Part shown: piece after piece, positions 354 to 57,611 of the stretch
Numbering within the stretch: position 1 is the first letter of the stretch
Layout: each line of letters begins with the position of its first letter
Assembly (NCBI RefSeq): GCF_024223415.1
Contig: NZ_CP100500.1
Origin: Escherichia coli
GTDB taxonomy: Bacteria; Pseudomonadota; Gammaproteobacteria; Enterobacterales; Enterobacteriaceae
Length of the DNA: 64,000 nucleotides
Direction: 5' to 3' (one strand)
Notes under the pieces: model-generated
The model's input: only the letters and a program-made list of their open reading frames with translations
The model's database searches: none
What the model was told of the DNA's origin: nothing
Made by a program: the position numbers and the translations under genes

Positions 354-3220
<2,867 letters not shown>

Positions 3221-3360
3221 CTATTATTTTAGCCACATTATTAGTAACAATGATAATCTGGCTGTATCGAAAATAATTCTAAACTTTCAGGAGATTTATT
3301 ATGAATAAACGTATCCTCACGATTGTGCCATTCTTCTTACCGATATTCTGACACATATCA

Positions 3361-4287
3361 TCAATTTTCGAGTTTTACTCTTTTCTCCACCATAAAATCA
3401 ATAAAAGCACGAACTTTAGAGGGCATTCTCACCCGTGATGAAACATAAATATAAAATCCAGGAAATGAAACAGCCCAATCCTCAAGAATCGGCTGTAACT
3501 TGCCCGCATTGATATGTTCAGCGATTGCAAAATCCAGATGTTGAATGATACCCGTTCCATTCAGCGCCATTCGTATCATGCTTTCGTCATCATTAGAAAT
3601 ATACTTACCTGAAACCTCTATTTCGAACTCTTCATTACCCCCCACAACATTAGAAAACTCCCATGCAGAGAGTGCACCGCTACTTTTATGCCGCAACCGA
3701 AGGCAATTATGGTTACTCAGTTCCTGAGGCGTTTCAGGAATACCGTGTTCTTTTAAATAATCTGGCGATGCCACAGTAACCAGTTTAATAAGCGGAGAAA
3801 CAGGAACGGCAGTCATATGCTCATCCAGTCCTTGCTCAAGACGTATGCCCACATCACAGCCGTCCGCAATAATGTTAGATAAACCGTCATCCATAATGAG
3901 TTCTATCTTTGTTTTGGGGTAACGAGTAAGAAACTCGCCAATATGAGGCTCAACAAGCATCCGTGCTGCAACACGGGAGGAATTTATTCTCAACAGGCCT
4001 GTAGGTTCAAGTTGGGTATCACCAACATCTTTCAAAGCATCATCAATTTGCCCCAAAGCCGACACCAGCACTTCATACAGACGCTGTCCTTCCTCAGTAA
4101 GCGACATATTGCGGGTCGTACGGTATATCAGCTTGGTGTTAAGACGTTCCTCAAGAGATTTTAAATTCTGGGACAATGCGGCCCGCGTAATACCCATTTC
4201 AGAAGCGGCTCTGGAAAAACTGCCGGCACGAACAATAAGCGCAAACCAGGCAAGAGAAGGCAAAATTGAAGGCTCTATTTTCATCAT
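3361..4287 (-). CDS. LysR-family transcriptional regulator
   Basis: 308-aa ORF with LysR helix-turn-helix and substrate-binding domain; divergent from the hydrolase gene at 4444. Confidence 0.85.
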   Translation of the reverse strand: MMKIEPSILPSLAWFALIVRAGSFSRAASEMGITRAALSQNLKSLEERLNTKLIYRTTRNMSLTEEGQRLYEVLVSALGQIDDALKDVGDTQLEPTGLLRINSSRVAARMLVEPHIGEFLTRYPKTKIELIMDDGLSNIIADGCDVGIRLEQGLDEHMTAVPVSPLIKLVTVASPDYLKEHGIPETPQELSNHNCLRLRHKSSGALSAWEFSNVVGGNEEFEIEVSGKYISNDDESMIRMALNGTGIIQHLDFAIAEHINAGKLQPILEDWAVSFPGFYIYVSSRVRMPSKVRAFIDFMVEKRVKLEN

Positions 4288-4443
4288 TGTAAACCTTAAC
4301 TTAACACTGTGATAGATATTAGATCATTGATGATAACCAATACAAGTCATACTATTACGCCGTTCTCGATATGAACACGAATGCCAGTTGCGGATAATAG
4401 AAATGATATTTAAATCTGTTTAGGCAAATCCCCGGAGCTTGAA

Positions 4444-5364
4444 ATGAAAACTGTTTCGATAAAACACACTTACTGGGATATAGCTGCTGATATCTATTTC
4501 CCTGACGATTTTAATAGTGAAAAAAAGTATCCTGCCATTATCAGCGCCCATCCAATTGGAAGCTGCAAAGAACAGACATCGGGTAGTGTGTATGGTGCCG
4601 CCCTGGCAAAAGCTGGCTTTATCGTCATTGCTTTTGATGCCAGTTTTCAGGGAAGCAGCGGTGGGGAACCGCGTTATCTGGAAGATCCAACAATGCGAGT
4701 AAAAGACTTCAGCATTGTCGTTGATTACCTTACCAGCTTACCTTACGTTGATGCCGGGCGTATTGGTGTACTGGGTATTTGTGGTGGAGGTGGATATGCC
4801 ATTAATGCCGCAATGACAGAACGTCGAATTAAAGCTATTGGTACTGTCACGGGTGCAAACTACGGGCGTCTTATGCGTGAGGGATTTACAGCGTTTAATC
4901 CTATCGGAGCACTCGAAGCAATGGCGCAACAAAGAACAGACGAAGCTAACGGCGCAAAACTTCGCGTAGATGATTTACTCCCCTCTTCTCCGGATGCAGC
5001 TCTTGAAGCGGGATTAACAGAAATAGACCTTTTTGAAGCCACAGAATATTATCGTTCGCCACGAGGCTGTGCACCTAATGGGGTAAATCGTTCGCTATTC
5101 TCACATCAGACTGTTGCCGTGGGTTGGGATGCATTTCATCTTGCAGAAGTGCTGTTAACTCAACCAATAATGGTTGTGGTGGGCGATAGAGTGGGCGCAT
5201 TTGGTGCCTACCGTGACGGCTGCGAAATTATTGGCCGCGCTGCCTCAAAACATAAAGAGCTGGTCGTGGTTGAAGGTTATTCACATTACGACCTGTATGA
5301 TAAGCCAGAACCTGTGAAACAGGCACTCGATAAATTAATTCCTTTTTATAAAACACATTTGTAA
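4444..5364 (+). CDS. alpha/beta hydrolase (dienelactone-hydrolase-like), no signal peptide
   Basis: 306-aa ORF with IGVLGICGGGGYAINAAM nucleophile-elbow region and KELVVVEGYSHYDLYD C-terminal motif; homologous to the ORF at 24130-25266. Confidence 0.8.
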   Translation: MKTVSIKHTYWDIAADIYFPDDFNSEKKYPAIISAHPIGSCKEQTSGSVYGAALAKAGFIVIAFDASFQGSSGGEPRYLEDPTMRVKDFSIVVDYLTSLPYVDAGRIGVLGICGGGGYAINAAMTERRIKAIGTVTGANYGRLMREGFTAFNPIGALEAMAQQRTDEANGAKLRVDDLLPSSPDAALEAGLTEIDLFEATEYYRSPRGCAPNGVNRSLFSHQTVAVGWDAFHLAEVLLTQPIMVVVGDRVGAFGAYRDGCEIIGRAASKHKELVVVEGYSHYDLYDKPEPVKQALDKLIPFYKTHL

Positions 5365-29338: not shown

Positions 29339-29414
29339 TGGTGCCGATAATAGGAGTCGAACCTACGACCTTCGCATTACGAATGCGCTGCTCTACCAAC
29401 TGAGCTATATCGGC
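29339..29414 (-). tRNA. thrW: tRNA-Thr (anticodon CGU)
   Basis: Reverse complement reads GCCGATATAGCTCAGTTGGTAGAGCAGCGCATTCGTAATGCGAAGGTCGTAGGTTCGACTCCTATTATCGGCACCA, a 76-nt cloverleaf with CGT anticodon and encoded CCA. Confidence 0.95.
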
Positions 29415-32184: not shown

Positions 32185-33240
32185 ATGAAAAAGAGCACTC
32201 TGGCATTAGTGGTGATGGGCATTGTGGCATCTGCATCCGTACAGGCCGCAGAAATATATAACAAAGACGGTAATAAACTGGATGTCTATGGCAAAGTTAA
32301 AGCCATGCATTATATGAGTGATAACGACAGTAAAGATGGCGACCAGAGTTATATCCGTTTTGGTTTTAAAGGCGAAACACAAATTAACGATCAACTGACT
32401 GGTTATGGTCGTTGGGAAGCAGAGTTTGCCGGTAATAAAGCAGAGAGTGATACTGCACAGCAAAAAACGCGTCTCGCTTTTGCCGGGTTGAAATATAAAG
32501 ATTTGGGTTCTTTCGATTATGGTCGTAACCTGGGCGCGTTGTATGACGTGGAAGCCTGGACCGATATGTTCCCGGAATTTGGTGGCGACTCCTCGGCGCA
32601 GACCGACAACTTTATGACCAAACGCGCCAGCGGTCTGGCGACGTATCGGAACACCGACTTCTTCGGTGTTATCGATGGCCTGAACTTAACCCTGCAATAT
32701 CAAGGGAAAAACGAAAACCGCGATGTTAAAAAGCAAAACGGCGATGGCTTCGGCACGTCATTGACATATGACTTTGGCGGCAGCGATTTCGCCATTAGTG
32801 GGGCCTATACCAACTCAGATCGCACCAACGAGCAGAACCTGCAAAGCCGTGGCACAGGCAAGCGTGCAGAAGCATGGGCTACAGGTCTGAAATACGATGC
32901 CAATAATATTTATCTGGCAACTTTTTATTCTGAAACACGCAAAATGACGCCAATAACTGGCGGCTTTGCCAATAAGACACAGAACTTTGAAGCGGTCGCT
33001 CAATACCAGTTTGATTTTGGTCTGCGTCCATCGCTGGGTTATGTCTTATCGAAAGGGAAAGATATTGAAGGTATCGGTGATGAAGATCTGGTCAATTATA
33101 TCGATGTCGGGGCTACATATTATTTCAACAAAAATATGTCAGCGTTTGTTGATTATAAAATCAACCAACTGGATAGCGATAACAAATTGAATATTAATAA
33201 TGATGATATTGTCGCGGTTGGCATGACCTATCAGTTTTAA
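32185..33240 (+). CDS. phoE: phosphate-starvation-inducible outer-membrane porin
   Basis: Start at [21 protein letters not shown] signal peptide; ends with the porin C-terminal YQF. Confidence 0.95.
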
Positions 33241-33278
33241 TGATTATTGCCGGATGTGATGCATCCGGCACATTTCAC

Positions 33279-33737
<459 letters not shown>

Positions 33738-45778: not shown

Positions 45779-46516
45779 GCGCCATTCGCCTGGCATAATC
45801 TTTTGCCAGGTTTCATTGCCCGTCAGCGGCTGTGTCGCAATCACCGTGACCACATCATTCGGTGTGGTCTGCGAGCTGAAGTCGATTTCTACATCCTGAT
45901 CCAGCAACGTTGCCACGCCAAACGGCGCGCGGCGGGTGATCCAGTGTAAATTAGTCGAGCAATACGCCATTACATAGCGCCCGTCCGAAAGCAGCATGTT
46001 GAAAACGCCCTTCGCCCGCAGTTCATCCGCCAGTGAGGCGATATATTTAAACACTGCCGCCATGTTGCCCGGCGTGCGCGGGTAACGCTGCGTTAATTTA
46101 TGCAGCAGCCAGCAAAAGGCTTTTTCGCTGTCGGTTTCACCGACCGGGCGGAAGTTGCCGGTTTCCAGTGATTTGTAGCCCGTCAGTTGCCCGTTATGGG
46201 CATAAGTCCAGTTACGCCCCCATAACTCGCGGGTAAACGGGTGAGTATTTTCCAGCGCCACCTCGCCCCGATTAGCCTGGCGAATATGAGCCACCACCGA
46301 ACAAGATTTTATTGGGTAGTCCTGGACCAGTTTGGCGATAGGTGAGTTAAAGCTGGGTTGCGGATCTTTAAATGTGCGACAGCCTTTACCTTCGTAAAAG
46401 GTAATGCCCCAGCCATCTTTATGTGGCCCAGTTCCACCACCACGCTGCACCAGACCGGTGAAACTAAAGCAGATATCGGTAGGGACGTTGGCGCTCATCC
46501 CGAGCAATTCGCACAT
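45749..46516 (-). CDS. yafJ: class II glutamine amidotransferase-like protein
   Basis: Start at [10 protein letters not shown] with GGAGG ribosome-binding site; N-terminal Cys nucleophile typical of class II amidotransferases. Confidence 0.85.
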
Positions 46517-46577
46517 GGGTAACCTCCACAACAGCGGGAGCGCATGGCCCCCGGCGAAGATTGATTTAAGAATTTTC

Positions 46578-46715
<138 letters not shown>

Positions 46716-46721
46716 CCAGAC

Positions 46722-47300
46722 TTACTTAACCATCTCTTTTTCAATTAACTGGATCAGGATATGGATCACTTTAATGTGGATCTCCTGAATGCGGTCGGCA
46801 TAACCAAAGTGCGGTACGCGAATTTCGATATCCGCCGTGCCAGCCATTTTGCCGCCGTCTTTACCGGTCAGGGTGATCACTTTCATCCCCTTCTCACGCG
46901 CCGCCGCGATCGCTTTGATCACGTTTGCAGAGTTACCGGAAGTGGAGATCCCCAGCAGTACATCGCCTTCGCGACCTACCGCTTCAACGTAGCGGGAGAA
47001 AATATCATTGAAACCGAAATCATTACCGACGCAGGAAATATGACTAACGTCAGAAATGGCAATCGCCGGGTAGCCCGGACGGTTTTCACGGTAGCGACCG
47101 GTCAACTCTTCGGCAAAGTGCATAGCGTCGCAATGGGAACCGCCGTTGCCGCAGGAAAGCACTTTGCCACCGGCTTTAAAGCTGTCTGCTAACAGGACCG
47201 CCGCGCGCTGAATGGCGTGAATATTGGCGTCATCTTTTAAAAAGTTAGCCAGCGTTTCCGCCGCTTCGTTCAGTTCGTTACGAATAAGATCCTGGTACAT
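46722..47300 (-). CDS. gmhA: sedoheptulose-7-phosphate isomerase
   Basis: Start at [15 protein letters not shown] giving the 192-aa protein; the track ORF has a 54-codon upstream extension. Confidence 0.95.
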
Positions 47301-49992: not shown

Positions 49993-50017
49993 CGGAGCCG
50001 AAAGGCTCCGTTTCTTT
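49993..50017. terminator. bidirectional rho-independent terminator between fadE and ivy
   Basis: Hairpin CGGAGCC-GAAA-GGCTCCG followed by TTTCTTT, flanked by convergent genes. Confidence 0.6.
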
Positions 50018-50026
50018 ATCCGCTAA

Positions 50027-50500
50027 TTATTTAAAATTAAAGCCATCCGGATGGTTTTCCAGGCTGCCGGTCAACGCCGCGAACAGCACCGTTTTACCAT
50101 CAATCGAAAGCGCATCGTTCACATTCAGCCAGGTCAGTTTCTCTTGCGACGTTTTCTCATCAATAGTCGAGAACAGCCCCGTCATCTGATTAGATTTCTC
50201 GGACCACATCACAGCGATACGTTGCGAGCCACAGTCATGCGGTTTGCACGCGCTCATCACCTGATACGTCTCATCTCCCAACGTTACGGTTTGTGCGGGA
50301 GTATAAGTACCGCCTTTCATCACCCATGCAGGTAGCTTATGCCCTTGCACCATCTGATTAAACGCAGCTTTGGTGGTTTCGCCCTTTGCAAGGCTGCTAA
50401 TGGTTAAATCATCCTGCGCCATTGCACTGGTGGCGATGACCAGAGCGGCGACTGTCGTTATTGCCTTAAACATCATTCCTCCCGAGCTTATCCTGCCCAT
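50027..50500 (-). CDS. ivy: inhibitor of vertebrate lysozyme
   Basis: 157-aa ORF with signal peptide and the CKPHDCG motif. Confidence 0.9.
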   Translation of the reverse strand: MGRISSGGMMFKAITTVAALVIATSAMAQDDLTISSLAKGETTKAAFNQMVQGHKLPAWVMKGGTYTPAQTVTLGDETYQVMSACKPHDCGSQRIAVMWSEKSNQMTGLFSTIDEKTSQEKLTWLNVNDALSIDGKTVLFAALTGSLENHPDGFNFK

Positions 50501-50653
50501 GTTATTAACCTCCTAAAGCCTGGCGATAACACGATAATTTGCAAATCAGATATTTCCAATATCAGCATTTGTTATCAATTTATTCTGCGCTAAGGCAACT
50601 GCCTGATAAGGTGTTAAAGTTATAAAACCCTTCGCATAAAGGAGTTGTACACC

Positions 50654-51421
50654 GTGCCTGGTTTGAAGATTACGCTTTTGCAGCAACCACTGGTGTGGAT
50701 GGATGGCCCTGCCAACCTGCGTCATTTTGATCGTCAACTGGAAGGTATTACCGGGCGCGATGTGATCGTTCTACCGGAGATGTTTACCAGCGGCTTTGCC
50801 ATGGAAGCGGCTGCTTCGTCGCTAGCACAAGATGACGTAGTGAACTGGATGACAGCCAAAGCGCAGCAGTGCAATGCGCTGATTGCAGGCAGTGTTGCAT
50901 TACAAACGGAGTCTGGTTCGGTTAACCGCTTTTTGCTGGTTGAGCCGGGCGGCACGGTACATTTTTATGATAAGCGTCATCTGTTCCGCATGGCAGATGA
51001 GCATCTGCATTATAAAGCGGGCAATGCGCGAGAGATTGTGGAATGGCGCGGCTGGCGTATTTTGCCGTTGGTGTGCTACGACTTACGTTTTCCGGTGTGG
51101 TCGCGCAATCTCAACGATTATGACCTCGCCATCTACGTTGCCAACTGGCCTGCTCCGCGCTCTCTGCACTGGCAGGCATTGCTGACGGCCCGCGCGATTG
51201 AGAATCAGGCGTATGTGGCGGGATGCAATCGCGTCGGCAGCGATGGCAACGGCTGCCATTATCGCGGTGACAGCCGGGTGATTAATCCACAGGGCGAGAT
51301 TATCGCTACTGCCGACGCGCATCAGGCAACGCGCATTGATGCGGAGCTGTCGATGGCGGTGTTAAGGGAATATCGCGATAAGTTTCCGGCATGGCGGGAT
51401 GCGGATGAGTTTAGGTTGTAG
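50654..51421 (+). CDS. yafV: nitrilase-family omega-amidase
   Basis: Carbon-nitrogen hydrolase family ORF; start taken at GTG 50654 ([11 protein letters not shown]...), preceded by an AAGGAG ribosome-binding site. Confidence 0.85.
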
Positions 51422-51479
51422 TGAGTGGGTGTTGTGTTTAGGGCTGGGGAGAGTCGGGGAAGACTACGAAAGCCCGCTC

Positions 51480-51849
51480 TCCTGCGACCACTTTTATCAT
51501 AGGAGTGTGGAAGTGCTTTTCCATCAATCGCGATGACGTCTTTGTCATTTGATGAATGGCAGTCACGCATCCAGTTAATAAAGCACTCGTGAAATTTTGC
51601 AGGACTGATACAGGATACAACTCTGGCAATGGTATCGTGAACAGGGATACCATTTTCAAAATCACCATATTGTTTTAAAAAATCGAGATGTGTTTCCCCA
51701 AAATCCTCTATATCTTCCCAACCTTCTACACCAGAAATAACGGCACAAATAGTCAACAGAAGAATATCTGACAATTTATGTTCCACTTTCCAGGCTTGAC
51801 TGTAATCGGGAATAATAGAAATATGTTCCATCAATTTTTTAAGTTCCAT
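51480..51849 (-). mobile_element. H-repeat (ISAs1-family) transposase N-terminal fragment
   Basis: N-terminal ~120 residues ([40 protein letters not shown]...) match H-repeat-associated proteins; similarity is lost after about residue 123 and the ORF runs into the yafV 3' end. Has its own AAGGAG ribosome-binding site. Confidence 0.7.
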
Positions 51850-52152
51850 TTTTTCTCCTTATTTATGTAAGGAGTATTTGATCATGTATAAGCAATAAAA
51901 AACAGCTTCAGGTAATGAGGAATATCTCAATTTTTAAACATAAAATGCGAATTATTTAGTATAAAAAGTGTACTTCTGATGATCTTTCCCTGGATTTACA
52001 TTAGGTTGGTTATTTTCCATACCCACAACTATATTTTCTCTCTGAATTTAATACGTGCAAGACAATCGCAGCACTCTAACTGACTTCGATGTGATTTGAT
52101 GTTCAGAAAAATCCCTCATTAGATTATTATCATGAAATACAGCCAATTATCT

Positions 52153-53103
52153 TTAGTTTTTATATTTCTCAATATATTCTTTTGAAAGGATTCGCGCCTT
52201 TTCAAACTCTTCAGGAGTTAATCTATTTTCCATCTTCAATTTATATTGAACACTTTTATCAAGTCCATGAGCGTATGCGGCACTGAACCAGGCATATGCC
52301 TTTTTATTATCGAGTGGTAACTCTTTCGTGCCTACGGAATAGATTAATGCAAGATTATGTTGTGCAACAGGATCACCATGTGTGGCTGACTTTCTTAACA
52401 GTTCTATTGCTTTATATTTATTTACAGTAATCCCACCCAGTCCTTCATAGTAAAAGATACTTAGTGCTGATTGTGCTTTTATGAAACCTTGACTTGCCGA
52501 TTTATCATACCAAAAGGCGGCTTTATTATAATCCTTTTTAATAATAACGCCTTCATAATAGAGTCGCCCTAAATGATACTGAGCAACCTTATCCCCTTGC
52601 TCCGCAGCGATACGATACCACTTATCTGCCAGATCTTTTTTATTAGTCTCATCATATAGTAAAGCAAGGTTAGTTTGAGCCGTAACTAATCCAGAATTTG
52701 CAGCTTTATTTAACCACGCTATGGCCTTACCATAATCTCTTATCACGCCACTCCCTTTACTATATAATACTCCTAAGTTTCCCTGCGCTTCTGGAAAACC
52801 TTTTTCAGCTGCCATTTGATAACATTCAAATGCTTTTTCATAATTTTGAGACACCCCATAACCATGAGCATACATAACACCGAGGTTATACTGAGCCTCT
52901 GTCAGCCCCTGTTTTGCTGCAAGCGAGTACCAATATACTGCATCTTTATAACTCTGGATTCCTTCAGAACCACTTCGATATAACTCCGCGAGTTTAAATT
53001 GCGCAGTAGCATCTCCCTTATCAGCATCTTTTCTTATATATGTCATTTTATTGGAGGCTGCTGTGTCTTCTGTCACCCCAATTGCAACAGGAATACTCAA
53101 CAC
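52153..53103 (-). CDS. Sel1-repeat (TPR-like) protein; candidate immunity protein for the upstream Rhs toxin
   Basis: About eight tandem ~36-aa Sel1-type repeats (AQxNLGxxYxxGxGVxxDYxKAxxWYxKAA). Low GC, 45 bp downstream of the Rhs stop. Start codon uncertain (GTG at 53103 or internal ATG). Confidence 0.8.
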   Translation of the reverse strand: MLSIPVAIGVTEDTAASNKMTYIRKDADKGDATAQFKLAELYRSGSEGIQSYKDAVYWYSLAAKQGLTEAQYNLGVMYAHGYGVSQNYEKAFECYQMAAEKGFPEAQGNLGVLYSKGSGVIRDYGKAIAWLNKAANSGLVTAQTNLALLYDETNKKDLADKWYRIAAEQGDKVAQYHLGRLYYEGVIIKKDYNKAAFWYDKSASQGFIKAQSALSIFYYEGLGGITVNKYKAIELLRKSATHGDPVAQHNLALIYSVGTKELPLDNKKAYAWFSAAYAHGLDKSVQYKLKMENRLTPEEFEKARILSKEYIEKYKN

Positions 53104-53147
53104 TTCAAAAAAAAAACATCACAACAACACACATTAATATTTTTCGA

Positions 53148-56100
53148 TTATTTTTTATCGGCATCTTTTTTATCATCACCTTTAAATTTATCTACCGCTT
53201 CACTAGAAGTCATGTCAGTAATATAATCTCCAAATGCATTTTCAGGCACAAAGGGCAATTTACCCAAAGTTGCACCTAATAATTCCTCCGCTCCTGTATC
53301 AGCAGCAGCATAAACACCAGATTTAAAATCCCCTCCCTTACTTAAAAATGACAATCCCATTTTCAAAGCTATTTTCTCAACAAACGTTTTTCCCGCTCCC
53401 CAAGAACCACCTAAAGCACATAGCGCCAACTCGGATTTATCCGGCATCTTATGATCAGACATATAGTCAGTCGTAGCAACCGCACCACATGAACTAAGAC
53501 TTCCAATTGCTATCTCCCCCCATGTAAGAGTCCCCCCTTCTAATGCAGCCGCACTTGCTACTGGCTCGGTAAATACTACTCCGGCAATAACAGGAGGCAG
53601 TAAAGCCCATCCTTTTACATAATCGTCTAATGGATTATACACTCCACGCATACTTGAAAAATCATCCAACGCTTTAAATTTTTCTTCATCTGACAGGTTC
53701 GGGGCGAATCCAACATTAGCCCCCTGCATAGTGTTATAATAATTAGTTCCAAATATCATTTGCGGCGTTACATTAGCTAACCCCAACGGATCTATATGTT
53801 CAATAGGATTGAGTGGGTACTGGTAAGGATTTAATCCTCCTTCCAGCCCAATCGGGTCCTGGGTGATATACCGTCCCTGCAACGGGTCATAGTACCGGTG
53901 ACGGTTGTAATACAGCCCCGACTCCTCATCATACTGCTGTCCCGGCAGACGGTACGGCTGTTGCAGGTGCTGCGCGCTGGTTTCGCCCAGCAGGTTTCCC
54001 CACTCGTCATACTCCCCCTGCCACGCCGTTTCCCCTTCCGGGCTGATGAGCGCCTGCGGCAGTCCCCGGTGGTCGCAGTGGTAAAGATGAAGTTTCCGCT
54101 CCGGGATGTATTCCGCCTCCAGCTGCGCGGCCATCTGCTCCGCCGTCAGCCCGCACTGCGCAAGCCATGCCTCACTCTCCGCACTCACCGCTCCCGCGCG
54201 CAGTTCCCGCTCCAGCCTCCCCAGCATCACCGACAGCTCCGCCGGTAGCGTCACACCCGTGTCCTCTTGCAACACCTCCGCCAGGCTCCGGTGCCGCGCC
54301 TTCGCCTGTTCGCCATTCTCTGTTTCGATTCTCAGGAGCGGCGTGAAGCTCCCCGGCTGGTATACCGTCTGGATACGCGTGGTGCCGGTCTGTATCGTCG
54401 TCAGCCTGTCGCCGTCCCACCCGTACCATGTCACCTCCGGTTTACGCGACAACGACATCCACCCCGTCAGGTCACGCTCCCGCCGCCATACCCGTTTTCC
54501 CGTCCGGCGGCCCAGCGGGTCATAGAGGTAACGGCTCTCCACCTGTGGTTCGCCGTGCTGTATCCGCGTGTAGAACACCAGGCGGTGCTGGCTGTCGTAG
54601 TGGTAGTGGTGGGTCCGCTCGTCGTGCATCCGGATAACCCCTTCCGGGATGCGGTCCGTCTTCTCCGCCAGCCTGCCGTATTCATCGTGGCGGTAGACAT
54701 AGTGCGCATCTTCCGCGATGCGGTTATCCGGCCACGCCGTGAGCGTGCTGTCCGGGTGCAGTTCCGGGTCCGGCAGCCGGTTTCCCGCCGGGTCTGTTGC
54801 ATACGGGATATCGATATCCAGGTTCGCCGCCGTGGTGTGGACGCCCGTCAGCCTTCCCGTGTCACTGTAACGGTACTCCCGGCTCTCCTGCGGGCCGCTG
54901 ATGCGGATTAGCTGTCCGTTGTCGTTCCAGTCGTAGTCACGGTCAAGCTGCGGGAGGTTCAGGTGCCTGCTCCGGAGCTGGCCGCTGGTATTCCAGGCGG
55001 TGGCAAGTTCATATGCCTCCCCGCCGAAGCTGCGGGCCGTCTCACGGTGCAGCCGGTCCCGCGTGTACTCGACCAGTGGCGTTCCGCCCAGCTTCATCCC
55101 CGCAAGATAACCGCTGCCATACGTCAGCCACTCTACCGGCGGCAGACCGTCCGGCTCCTGACGGGTCGCCAGTCCCTGTTCGCTGTACGCGTGCCCCGTC
55201 TCATGCTCCCACAGCATCTCCCCCGTCTCCGGGTTCTCCACCGTCTGCCGTTCGCCCGTCAGGCGGCCTTTATCGTCATAGCCGTAGTGGACCGCCACAC
55301 GGTGGCCTTCACTGGTATGGCTGATGGTGGTTAACCACCCGTGCTCATCATACTGCCACTGCTCCGCCGGGTCGCCGTTCACCGTCCGGTGCGTGATGCG
55401 GTCCGACGCATCGTAATGCCAGAGGGTGATAAGTCCCTCATCTTCACTCTGCGTGAGTTTTCCGGTCAGGTCATAGTGGTAACGTTGCGTCCGCCCGTCA
55501 AAACCGCGCTGTTCAGTCAGCCTGTCCACCGGGTCATACCGGAACGTGGACTGGCTGCCGTTCTCGTTGGTCAGCACGGTGATGCGCCCGGCAGCGTCAT
55601 ACCCCATGCTGCGCGTAAGACCGCCTTCCGTCACACTCACCGGACGCCCGCGTTTATCATATTCGATGGTGCTGCATTTACCGTCCGGTGATATCGTTGC
55701 TGTCAGGTCGCCTGCGGCGCTGTACTCATAACGGATTTCACGCCCCTGCGCATCCTTCTGACTGACCAGTTGCCCACGCGGGTTATAACTGCTGTAAGTG
55801 CTGATGCCTTCTTCCCGGTGAACGGCGATTTGTTGACCGTACCGGTCGTACTCATACCGCGTCGTGTACCCCGAGCAGTCCGTAAAGGCCAGCAGTTGAC
55901 CGTAACGGCTCCATGCCATCTGTTTTGTACTGCCCGTCGCATCCTCTATCCCTGTCGGCAGCTCACTCGCCGGGTCATCATAGCTGTAACTCGTCGTCTC
56001 ACCGCTGCGTGAGGTCTCCGCCGCCAGCCTTCCCTTCTCATCATACTCCCGGCTGCTGCGAAGCCCGTCCGGGTACGTCACCGACGTCACCTGCCGCTGG

Positions 56101-57536
56101 CTGTTATAGCCATACCGTACCGTCCTGCCGTCCGGCCCCGTCACCGCCGTCACCGCACCCGACGCCATATGCAGGCTGTACTCCGTCCGCTGCCCCGCCG
56201 CATCCGTCTGTGCCTTCAGCCTCCCCGCCTCATCATACTCGCTGCGGGTGATGCTCCCGTCCGCATGCTCCTTCTTCACCACCCGCTTCAGGCCGCCTTC
56301 GCCCTCCGTGTACAGCACCTCCCGCCGGTTCAGGCTGTCCGTGATGGTCACACGGTCCTGCCCGTACTCAAAGCGGTAGTCCAGCCCCTCCGGGTTGACC
56401 TGCTCCGTCACCCGACCGGTATCATCATACCGGTAGCGGCTCTCCGGCCTCCCTGCATAATGGTGCGCCACCATCCGCCCCGCGTGCTCCGCATCATAAG
56501 TAAACCCGCGCACCTGCGTCCCGCTGCGGTCATACACCGCCCGCAGTTCTCCGCTGGCCGTGTACGTGTAGCGCGCCAGCGGCGCAGTCGGCTGTTCATC
56601 CGGGTATGCCGGGTCGTGTGTCAGCCACACCGCCTCCAGCCGGATACCGTTATCGGCACCGTACTCTGTACCGGTGGGCAGCGTGTCGGGGAAAACCTGA
56701 GAAGAGGAAACAGAACGGGGACTGGCCGGGGAAGATAAGGAAGACTCGCGCTGTTTACGGAAGGCTTCCGCCCGCTGCGCCTGTGTGGTCAGCGCCAGGT
56801 GAAAACGGCGGCCCGCGCCGTCCGTCACCCCCGTCACCGCGCCCGCCACGTCACCCTCCGCCGCCCTGTGAAAGGCCAGCGTCCGACCAAAGCCATCCAC
56901 CACGCCCGTCAGCACCCGGTATGCGGGCGGCTCCGGCGGCAGCACCTCGTCCGCCTCCGGCACCCGCTCCGGCCAGCTGAGCACCAGCCACTGCCCGGTT
57001 GTGCTGACAGCCATCATATAGGTGTGTGGACTCAGACGGACCGCTTCCGGCAGCGCCCGCCAGAGCCGGGCCAGCGGGTGGTCTTTGTGTTGTTTCAGCA
57101 CCCCACCCCTTGCCAGCCAGAGTGACTCGCTGCGGCTGTAGCTTATCTCGCCGGGAAACAGCGGCTCAAAGTGAATGCTCCTGCCGCCGTTGTCGTTGAG
57201 TATCAGTTCCCGCTCATGAATCTGTAAGCGGATATCAAAGGGGGCTTTCCAGCCGGGGCCAAACACCCCCACCGGCGCGGGCGTCCTGGTCCGGTAACTG
57301 CTGTAGGCACGGGAAAGAATGAACGGCAGCGGGCCGGGCAGCGCAAGGTCCGTCTCGCCCGGCAGCACCTTCGCACCCAGTAGCGGGTTCACCGGGTTAG
57401 CATAGGTAATCCCTCCCGGACACACCGAGCAGGCCACTCCCGTCGGCGCACCTATCAGCACCCCCGCTGAACCCTGCACAATATCCAGTCCCTTGCGGGT
57501 CATATCACCCTGCCGCGCCGCCGGTTTTCCGCCCAT
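53148..57536 (-). CDS. rhs: Rhs-family polymorphic toxin with N-terminal PAAR-like motif and variable C-terminal domain
   Basis: 1462-aa ORF: N-terminus [12 protein letters not shown], long YD-repeat core, core-terminal PxxxxDPxGL motif (DPIGLEGG...IDPLGL), then a 209-aa low-GC extension. AAGGA ribosome-binding site. Confidence 0.9.
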
Positions 57537-57611
57537 GAATCAATTCCTTCTGCTTTTAATATGGTTTATCTGGTCACTGCACCAGTTCCGTTTTGATTTT
57601 TTGCACCTGAC

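Follow-up and report, generated by a model that had tools for sequence, protein, structure and literature searches.

A dead H-repeat insertion sequence with a 751-bp internal deletion at the yafV-side end of an Escherichia coli Rhs/T6SS island

The stretch of Escherichia coli DNA analysed here (64,000 nucleotides of contig NZ_CP100500.1, referred to as the window) carries, just beyond the core gene yafV, what is very probably a dead insertion sequence (IS) of the H-repeat type that lost 751 bp from its interior and became fixed as a single-copy fossil. Its anatomy, its deletion junction, its distribution and its mosaic structure are all directly observed. The feature as such is already known, being a PGAP-annotated IS pseudogene with an apparent named counterpart, yafF, in K-12; what is mildly new is the exact anatomy of the deletion, its antiquity and frequency, and a mosaic that points to recombination within the fossil.

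Anatomy of the remnant and its internal deletion

The features of this region are given below by position in the window, strand and description.

50654..51421, plus strand: yafV, encoding 2-oxoglutaramate amidase, the last core gene (Pfam CN_hydrolase, E = 5e-34; PGAP annotation of identical genomes)
51322..51474, minus strand: out-of-frame 50-codon tail of the open reading frame (ORF), which passes the old stop, leaves the IS and extends for 100 nt into yafV on the opposite strand
51414..51454, no strand assigned: 41-bp flank common to every island-bearing strain examined (K-12, E94, Nissle and the window) and absent from island-free genomes
51455..51482, minus strand: IS right terminus, with the inverted repeat, the old TAG, the last 5 codons and one 8-bp repeat (alignments to the E94, yhhI and ydcC copies)
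51475..51849, minus strand: the 125 codons homologous to the ISAs1 family, covering DDE_Tnp_1_assoc and the very start of the catalytic domain (Pfam, YhhI, NCBIfam, PGAP)
51482..51483, no strand assigned: deletion junction, where 751 bp internal to the IS were lost (positions 3186..3936 of the E94 locus, L002, are missing)
51483..51553, minus strand: old diverged block, with 15/71 nt (21%) differing from ISEc1/ISEc5, common to all carriers of the deletion
51554..51992, minus strand: distal 439 bp of the IS, with the left inverted repeat, the 5' leader, the ribosome-binding site (RBS) and codons 1-99, 99.5% identical to an ISEc5-family element
51855..51874, minus strand: small hairpin in which the RBS AAGGAG pairs with an upstream CTCCTT (modest support)
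52153..53103, minus strand: Sel1/TPR-repeat protein (Pfam Sel1, E = 8e-55; PGAP "tetratricopeptide repeat protein")
53148..57536, minus strand: Rhs core protein of 1462 aa (Pfam RHS_repeat, E = 5e-78, RHS and DUF6531), downstream of VgrG and Hcp

Among the ORFs of the window, the one at 51322..51849 on the minus strand encodes 175 aa, and its AAGGAG RBS at 51855..51860 (-) stands 5 nt before the ATG at 51847..51849. Residues 1-125 are identical to the intact 378-aa ISEc1 transposase YhhI at 117 of 125 positions (94%, E = 4e-88), and past residue 125 the alignment to the full-length transposase finds no further homology. This match is confirmed not to be a chance match. The N-terminal domain by which membership of the ISAs1 family was judged, DDE_Tnp_1_assoc (PF13808), is present at residues 8-94 (E = 3e-32, profile positions 2-88 of 88), and the NCBIfam model of the ISAs1 transposase is matched only at positions 1-96 of 314. 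Neither a complete DDE catalytic domain nor a full-length transposase of ~378 aa is present, which makes the feature a relic of the ISAs1 family and not a functional member. In genomes that are 100% identical here (AR_0085 and KV7), PGAP annotates 51475..51849 as "ISAs1 family transposase, incomplete, missing C-terminus". The first-pass annotation had described an H-repeat transposase fragment that keeps its RBS and about 120 codons, then loses homology and runs antisense into the end of yafV. This description is accurate to within five bases: the fragment is of the ISAs1/ISEc1 type with ~125 codons intact, nothing aligns beyond them, and the overlap with yafV amounts to 100 nt. When an alignment of the ORF over its full length to an intact family member was looked for, residues 1-125 were the only part to align.

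The hairpin at 51855..51874 (-) has 7 bp, a folding energy of -7.9 kcal/mol and z = -2.1, and it coincides with a terminator-like match on the plus strand. RBS-sequestering structures have been described for other insertion sequences, and this hairpin is similar to them in form. No Rfam RNA was found in 50000..53500, and promoter- and terminator-like sites in 51250..52250 were not enriched, their counts equalling the shuffled expectation.

The ends of the IS were defined from copies in unrelated contexts, namely those at yhhI, ydcC and ybfD and the yafV-adjacent copies of E94 and EC01307, and the left terminus in particular was set by comparing six copies in different contexts. On this basis, the remnant spans 51455..51992 (538 bp) with both termini kept, and 538 bp together with the missing 751 bp come to about the full length of 1,291 bp. 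Its left end reads ...GATCTTTCCCTG, the last base being 51992, with the left inverted repeat TGATCTTTCCCTG at 51980..51992. The right end begins with CAGGGCAAGATTACG in canonical copies, with CGGGGTAAGACTACG in yafV-adjacent copies and with CGGGG-AAGACTACG in the window. Terminal inverted repeats are thus found at both ends, the right one being degenerate: from 51455 it reads CGGGG-AAGACTA against the canonical CAGGGCAAGATTA, matches the consensus at 10/13 positions in E94 and has a further 1-bp deletion in the window. The original transposase stop, TAG, is the CTA at 51464..51466. No target-site duplication was seen by eye, in that no direct repeat flanks the window copy, the yhhI copy or the ydcC copy.

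An 11-nt string at the IS right end (ACGAAAGCCCG, 51467..51477) is the same as the left arm of the aspV/yafV terminator hairpin in an island-free genome (L007, ~3184..3194). The chance expectation for this match is only ~1e-3, and the identity is nevertheless probably a coincidence, because all ISEc1 copies hold these bases.

Comparison with the undeleted copy of E94 locates the break to the base. The window aligns to the E94 locus (L002) in two colinear pieces, 51300..51482 to 3001..3185 and 51475..51992 to 3929..4446, which overlap by 8 bp in the window; direct repeats of 8 bp, CGCTCYCC, flank the 751-bp deletion. In the base-level alignment, the window junction reads ...GAAAGCCCGCTCTCC followed directly by TGCGACC..., and the copy of the 8-bp repeat that lies within the right terminus, at 51475..51482, is CGCTCTCC. 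The full-length E94 copy has CGCTCTCC then GCAAGG at its right end and CGCTCCCC then TGCGGCG internally, and K-12, ST69 and the canonical ISEc1 have CGCTCCCC at both repeats. The breakpoint, which the first-pass annotation had left to be located by alignment to full-length elements, is accordingly placed at 51482/51483 when E94-type undeleted copies are used for the comparison. The deleted 751 bp were sought elsewhere in the window and were not found there.

The sequence of events that would account for this anatomy begins when an ISAs1-family H-repeat (ISEc1/ISEc5, ~1,291 bp) inserts 33 bp past the stop codon of yafV, where the Rhs element of the aspV T6SS island has its outer end. A later loss of 751 internal bp, by recombination or slippage between the 8-bp direct repeats (GGGGAGCG in the sense strand), would have removed codons 126 to ~373, that is, nearly the whole DDE catalytic domain, and left both inverted-repeat termini in place; the repeats suggest that the deletion was microhomology-mediated. 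As 751 bp is not a multiple of three (751 = 1 mod 3), the frame shifts at the junction and the old TAG falls out of frame, so that the ORF skips it, leaves the IS and enters yafV; the antisense overlap with yafV exists because the deletion caused this +1 frameshift. Translation from the intact RBS and ATG would give a 175-aa chimera, for which catalytic activity is not expected.

Position at the edge of the aspV island

Island-free genomes show where the island begins. In the empty-site genome 2022H048 (L007), yafV is followed 98 bp on by the tRNA-Asp gene aspV and then by dnaQ, with no island between them, and the remnant is absent from such genomes in which yafV abuts aspV, as befits a boundary of the aspV island; the empty site occurs in 757/5,426 complete genomes. 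Homology of the window to 2022H048 stops at ~51413, inside the last yafV codons, the 3' ends reading ...GAG TTT AGG TTG TAG in the window and ...GAA TTC ACA TTT CGT TAG at the empty site. The last 2-3 codons and the stop of yafV are provided by the 41-bp flank (51414..51454), and yafV in the window is one codon shorter than in most strains, with TAG at 51419..51421 in place of CGG/TGG followed by TGA. Of the recognisable elements of the island, the IS remnant is thus the outermost, 41 bp inside the boundary. The first-pass annotation had placed a deletion endpoint about 60 bp from the yafV stop and taken it to delimit the Rhs/T6SS island. The position stands, at 61 nt; the delimiting role does not, as the break against island-free genomes lies at ~51413 and the junction is internal to the IS.

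Three further observations concern this edge. The C-terminus of YafV is ...EFRL(R) in island-bearing genomes and ...EFTFR in island-free ones (window 51409..51421). Inspection of the alignments revealed no direct repeat of tRNA origin at the boundary on the yafV side. The sole tRNA gene in the window is that for tRNA-Thr (CGU) at 29339..29414 (-), and the window does not reach the aspV end of the island.

Beyond the remnant, the gene order is that of an Rhs/T6SS island: yafV, IS remnant, Sel1/TPR, Rhs core, VgrG, Hcp, tssB and so on. The 12.7 kb from 51300 to the end of the window are 100% identical to E. coli KV7, NCTC9112 and NCTC10444, and KV7 continues this order from fadE, ivy, yafV, IS pseudogene, TPR/Sel1, Rhs core, VgrG and Hcp to tssB-tssC-tssE-tssF... 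through tssM. A T6SS island has been placed at aspV in E. coli (PMC5363993), and the genome paper on E. coli W describes an Rhs element in the b0215-b0221 interval (PMC3032704). The window represents the yafV-side end of this aspV T6SS/Rhs island (e.g. the EHEC EDL933 cluster and b0215-b0221 of E. coli W) and does not differ from it in kind; only its Rhs tip, with the Sel1/TPR partner, is uncommon. The remnant together with the TPR gene occurs in 31/5,426 complete genomes, all with the pseudogene annotation, and a search for the window's Rhs-tip/TPR cassette beside a full-length H-repeat at another locus did not find one.

The remnant also occupies the position of an Rhs accessory H-repeat, at the distal end of an element made up of core, tip, small ORF and H-repeat: RhsB-yhhH-yhhI and Rhs-ydcD-ISAs1 are laid out in the same way as Rhs core-Sel1/TPR-IS remnant. 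From its position, the Sel1/TPR protein is likely to be an immunity or accessory gene of the Rhs tip cassette. It was also observed that the C-terminal ~150-200 residues of the Rhs protein have no Pfam match and that the Sel1/TPR gene follows directly; the two are possibly an uncharacterised toxin/immunity pair. In KV7 (L009), tssG at 32402..33461 and a VasL-domain gene at 45866..47276, both beyond the end of the window, are annotated as frameshifted, and the T6SS beside the remnant may itself be decaying.

Several known elements resemble the remnant. The H-repeats ISEc1/ISEc5 (H-rpt; YhhI, YdcC, YbfD) share with it the terminal inverted repeats and the position after Rhs core, tip and small ORF, but are ~1,291 bp long, whereas the remnant, at 538 bp, is without 751 bp that include nearly all of the DDE domain, and the 71 bp beside its junction are 21% diverged from both. 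The yafV-adjacent copy in E94 and EC01307 has the orthologous position, the flank and the right terminus of the window copy. Unlike the latter, it is undeleted (1,291 bp, with a 1,137-nt CDS), although PGAP calls it a pseudogene on account of an internal stop at codon 18, and it is ISEc1-like throughout (97% to the yhhI copy) and lacks the old diverged block.

The closest counterpart is K-12 yafF (b4503), an H-repeat pseudogene between yafU and yafV, at the same locus and in the same orientation as the window remnant. The two share the 41-bp flank and a diverged right-terminal signature (TCTTACCCCG-like after TAG, as opposed to TAA followed by TCTTGCCCTG in canonical copies). However, what survives in yafF is 291 bp from the right end (ISEc1 positions 1002-1292, covering the C-terminal portion of the transposase), the left part being gone along with the Rhs/T6SS genes, whereas the window remnant keeps the left 510 bp and only the last 28 bp. 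Because position, flank and terminal signature are shared, both would derive from the same ancestral insertion, and yafF appears to be the complementary right-end remnant of that insertion, produced by a different deletion.

Distribution, mosaic structure and competing explanations

The junction is common in the species. A 116-bp probe spanning it gave an unbroken match in 1,096 of the 5,426 complete E. coli genomes (~20%) and was close to single-copy, with 1,108 places in 1,105 records; the junction adjoins yafV in every locus inspected (EC5, EC974, A13, ST69, Nissle 1917, CUVET20 and L73). All of these carriers, and Escherichia sp. E1V33, have the identical junction. An undeleted right end by yafV is present in ~1,273 genomes, an approximate figure, a few of these matches having been joined from two pieces. 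When one genome per species was scanned for exact 22-mers, E1V33 gave the same junction, flank and IS left end beside fadE-ivy-yafV, and the deletion is therefore either old or has been moved across species lines by recombination.

The remnant is a mosaic of two parts. Sense positions 1-439 (51554..51992) differ from ISEc1 by ~4%, and sense positions 440-510 (51483..51553) by 15 of 71 nt (21%). The distal block differs from the intact ISEc5-family element at the ydcC/Rhs locus of ETEC1717 (L018) at only 2/439 positions, both in the non-coding leader, and all window-specific changes, including R17S and A41V, are in the ISEc5 state; in EC974 and EC5 the distal block is of the ISEc1 type. The diverged type covers sense positions 320-510 in Nissle, ST69 and A13, where the remnant is truncated beyond them. 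The crossover in the window remnant lies at ~51544..51559. The diverged block itself has a median of one copy per genome, with 1,129 places in 1,107 records, and inspected copies are all beside yafV. No full-length element with the old diverged block was found in E. coli genomes, and the scan of one genome per species returned the block only in the same remnant in E1V33, a scan of exact 22-mer matches that diverged relatives escape. By an argument of parsimony, the deletion came first and replacement of the distal part second.

This mosaic bears on whether the fragment has been under selection. Naive dN/dS between the window and two other carriers of the deletion is 0.10-0.14, and the window lineage has 7 synonymous changes against 2 nonsynonymous ones. 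Purifying selection on the fragment was considered and rejected, as these changes are the state of an intact ISEc5-type element, and the low dN/dS is due to recombination or gene conversion with functional copies, not to selection on the fragment. Furthermore, the ORF of EC974 has a stop (W20*), the N-terminus is gone in ST69, A13, Nissle and CUVET, and E1V33 has GTG in place of ATG.

Truncated transposases inhibit other IS elements, and the truncated gene might accordingly be functional, encoding a protein that consists of DDE_Tnp_1_assoc only and is kept by selection, e.g. as a trans-acting inhibitor or regulator of ISEc1/ISEc5 transposition. The RBS, the ATG and the 125 codons are intact in the window, the allele is old and widespread, and the 7:2 ratio of synonymous to nonsynonymous changes would fit such a protein. 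However, the synonymous excess vanishes once an ISEc5-type donor is taken into account, with its 2/439 differences confined to the non-coding leader; the frame is broken in 5/7 of the other E. coli carriers inspected (by the stop in EC974 and by loss of the N-terminus in ST69, A13, Nissle and CUVET); the ATG-to-GTG change in Escherichia sp. E1V33 and a 50-aa tail that is frameshift junk also speak against it. A functional protein is thus very unlikely. A non-autonomous, MITE-like 538-bp derivative, mobilised in trans by intact H-repeat transposases, is slightly less likely still: both terminal inverted repeats are recognisable, and intact ISEc1/ISEc5 transposase genes are common in E. coli (a median of ~5-6 H-repeat places per genome), but the junction is close to single-copy (1,108 places in 1,105 records) and adjoins yafV wherever a locus was inspected, and the right inverted repeat is degenerate (10/13 in E94, with an additional 1-bp deletion in the window). 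The genome paper on E. coli W, according to which transposition of H-rpt has not been observed (PMC3032704), also counts against it.

The breakpoint might instead be the island/core junction itself, had the 3' part of the IS been deleted together with adjacent DNA. Transposase homology indeed ends 61 nt from the yafV stop, and PGAP says only "missing C-terminus". Nevertheless, the 28 bp that adjoin the breakpoint towards yafV form the right end of the IS, with its stop codon and inverted repeat, and are colinear with the full-length E94 copy and with K-12 yafF; in addition, the break against empty-site genomes is at ~51413 and not at 51482. Such a terminal truncation, to which hardly any probability was given, is ruled out by the retained right terminus. 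A dead H-repeat with an internal deletion is the best explanation of the feature.

Cassette exchange beside the remnant and wider meaning

The left terminus of the remnant is also where neighbouring genomes part. From fadE as far as 51992 exactly, L73 and the window are colinear (99.4%), with the remnant identical at 510/510 positions, and past 51992 (L017 4293/4294) L73 carries an unrelated DUF3990 gene, hypothetical genes and an Rhs fragment, not TPR/Sel1 and Rhs. As an observation in its own right, the variable region is sharply bounded by the H-repeat end (window 51992/51993). In E94, the sequence abutting the IS left end (L002 4442..4507) is 85% similar to the region at the start of the Rhs gene in the window (57491..57558), a likeness that hints at a different rearrangement at the H-repeat end.

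Taken with the mosaic, the case of L73 suggests that, when Rhs tip/immunity cassettes are exchanged, crossovers occur within H-repeat homology. Every donor cassette would carry its own H-repeat, as at RhsB-yhhH-yhhI and Rhs-ydcD-ISAs1, and the remnant would matter only passively, as a block of H-repeat homology on the yafV side. It is possible, and put forward here only tentatively, that the dead H-repeat has been kept because it offers, on the yafV side, a homology arm through which Rhs toxin-tip/immunity cassettes are swapped. Three findings fit: the distal 439 bp have been overwritten by ISEc5-type sequence in the window and by ISEc1-type sequence in EC974 and EC5, with the crossover in the same ~90-bp interval beside the old anchored block; unrelated cassettes start exactly at the left terminus of 100% identical remnants; and the arrangement is older than the divergence from a cryptic-clade species of Escherichia. 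An adjacent rearrangement mediated by the transposase end would, however, be expected to give an equally sharp cassette boundary.

By itself, the feature is of little importance, since it is an IS pseudogene that routine annotation already picks up. Its exact anatomy is of use to annotators: the 175-aa reading frame ought not to be listed as a gene, and it overlaps yafV only as an artefact of the frameshift. For the history of the locus, the junction is a precise, ancient and easily typed marker with which the aspV T6SS island can be traced. If the dead H-repeat does serve as such a homology arm, the fossil would belong to the structure of the machinery by which the T6SS island exchanges its cassettes, and would not be mere debris. 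Finally, the remnant provides a concrete case in which an inert H-repeat bordering a variable Rhs toxin cassette serves as a substrate for recombination.
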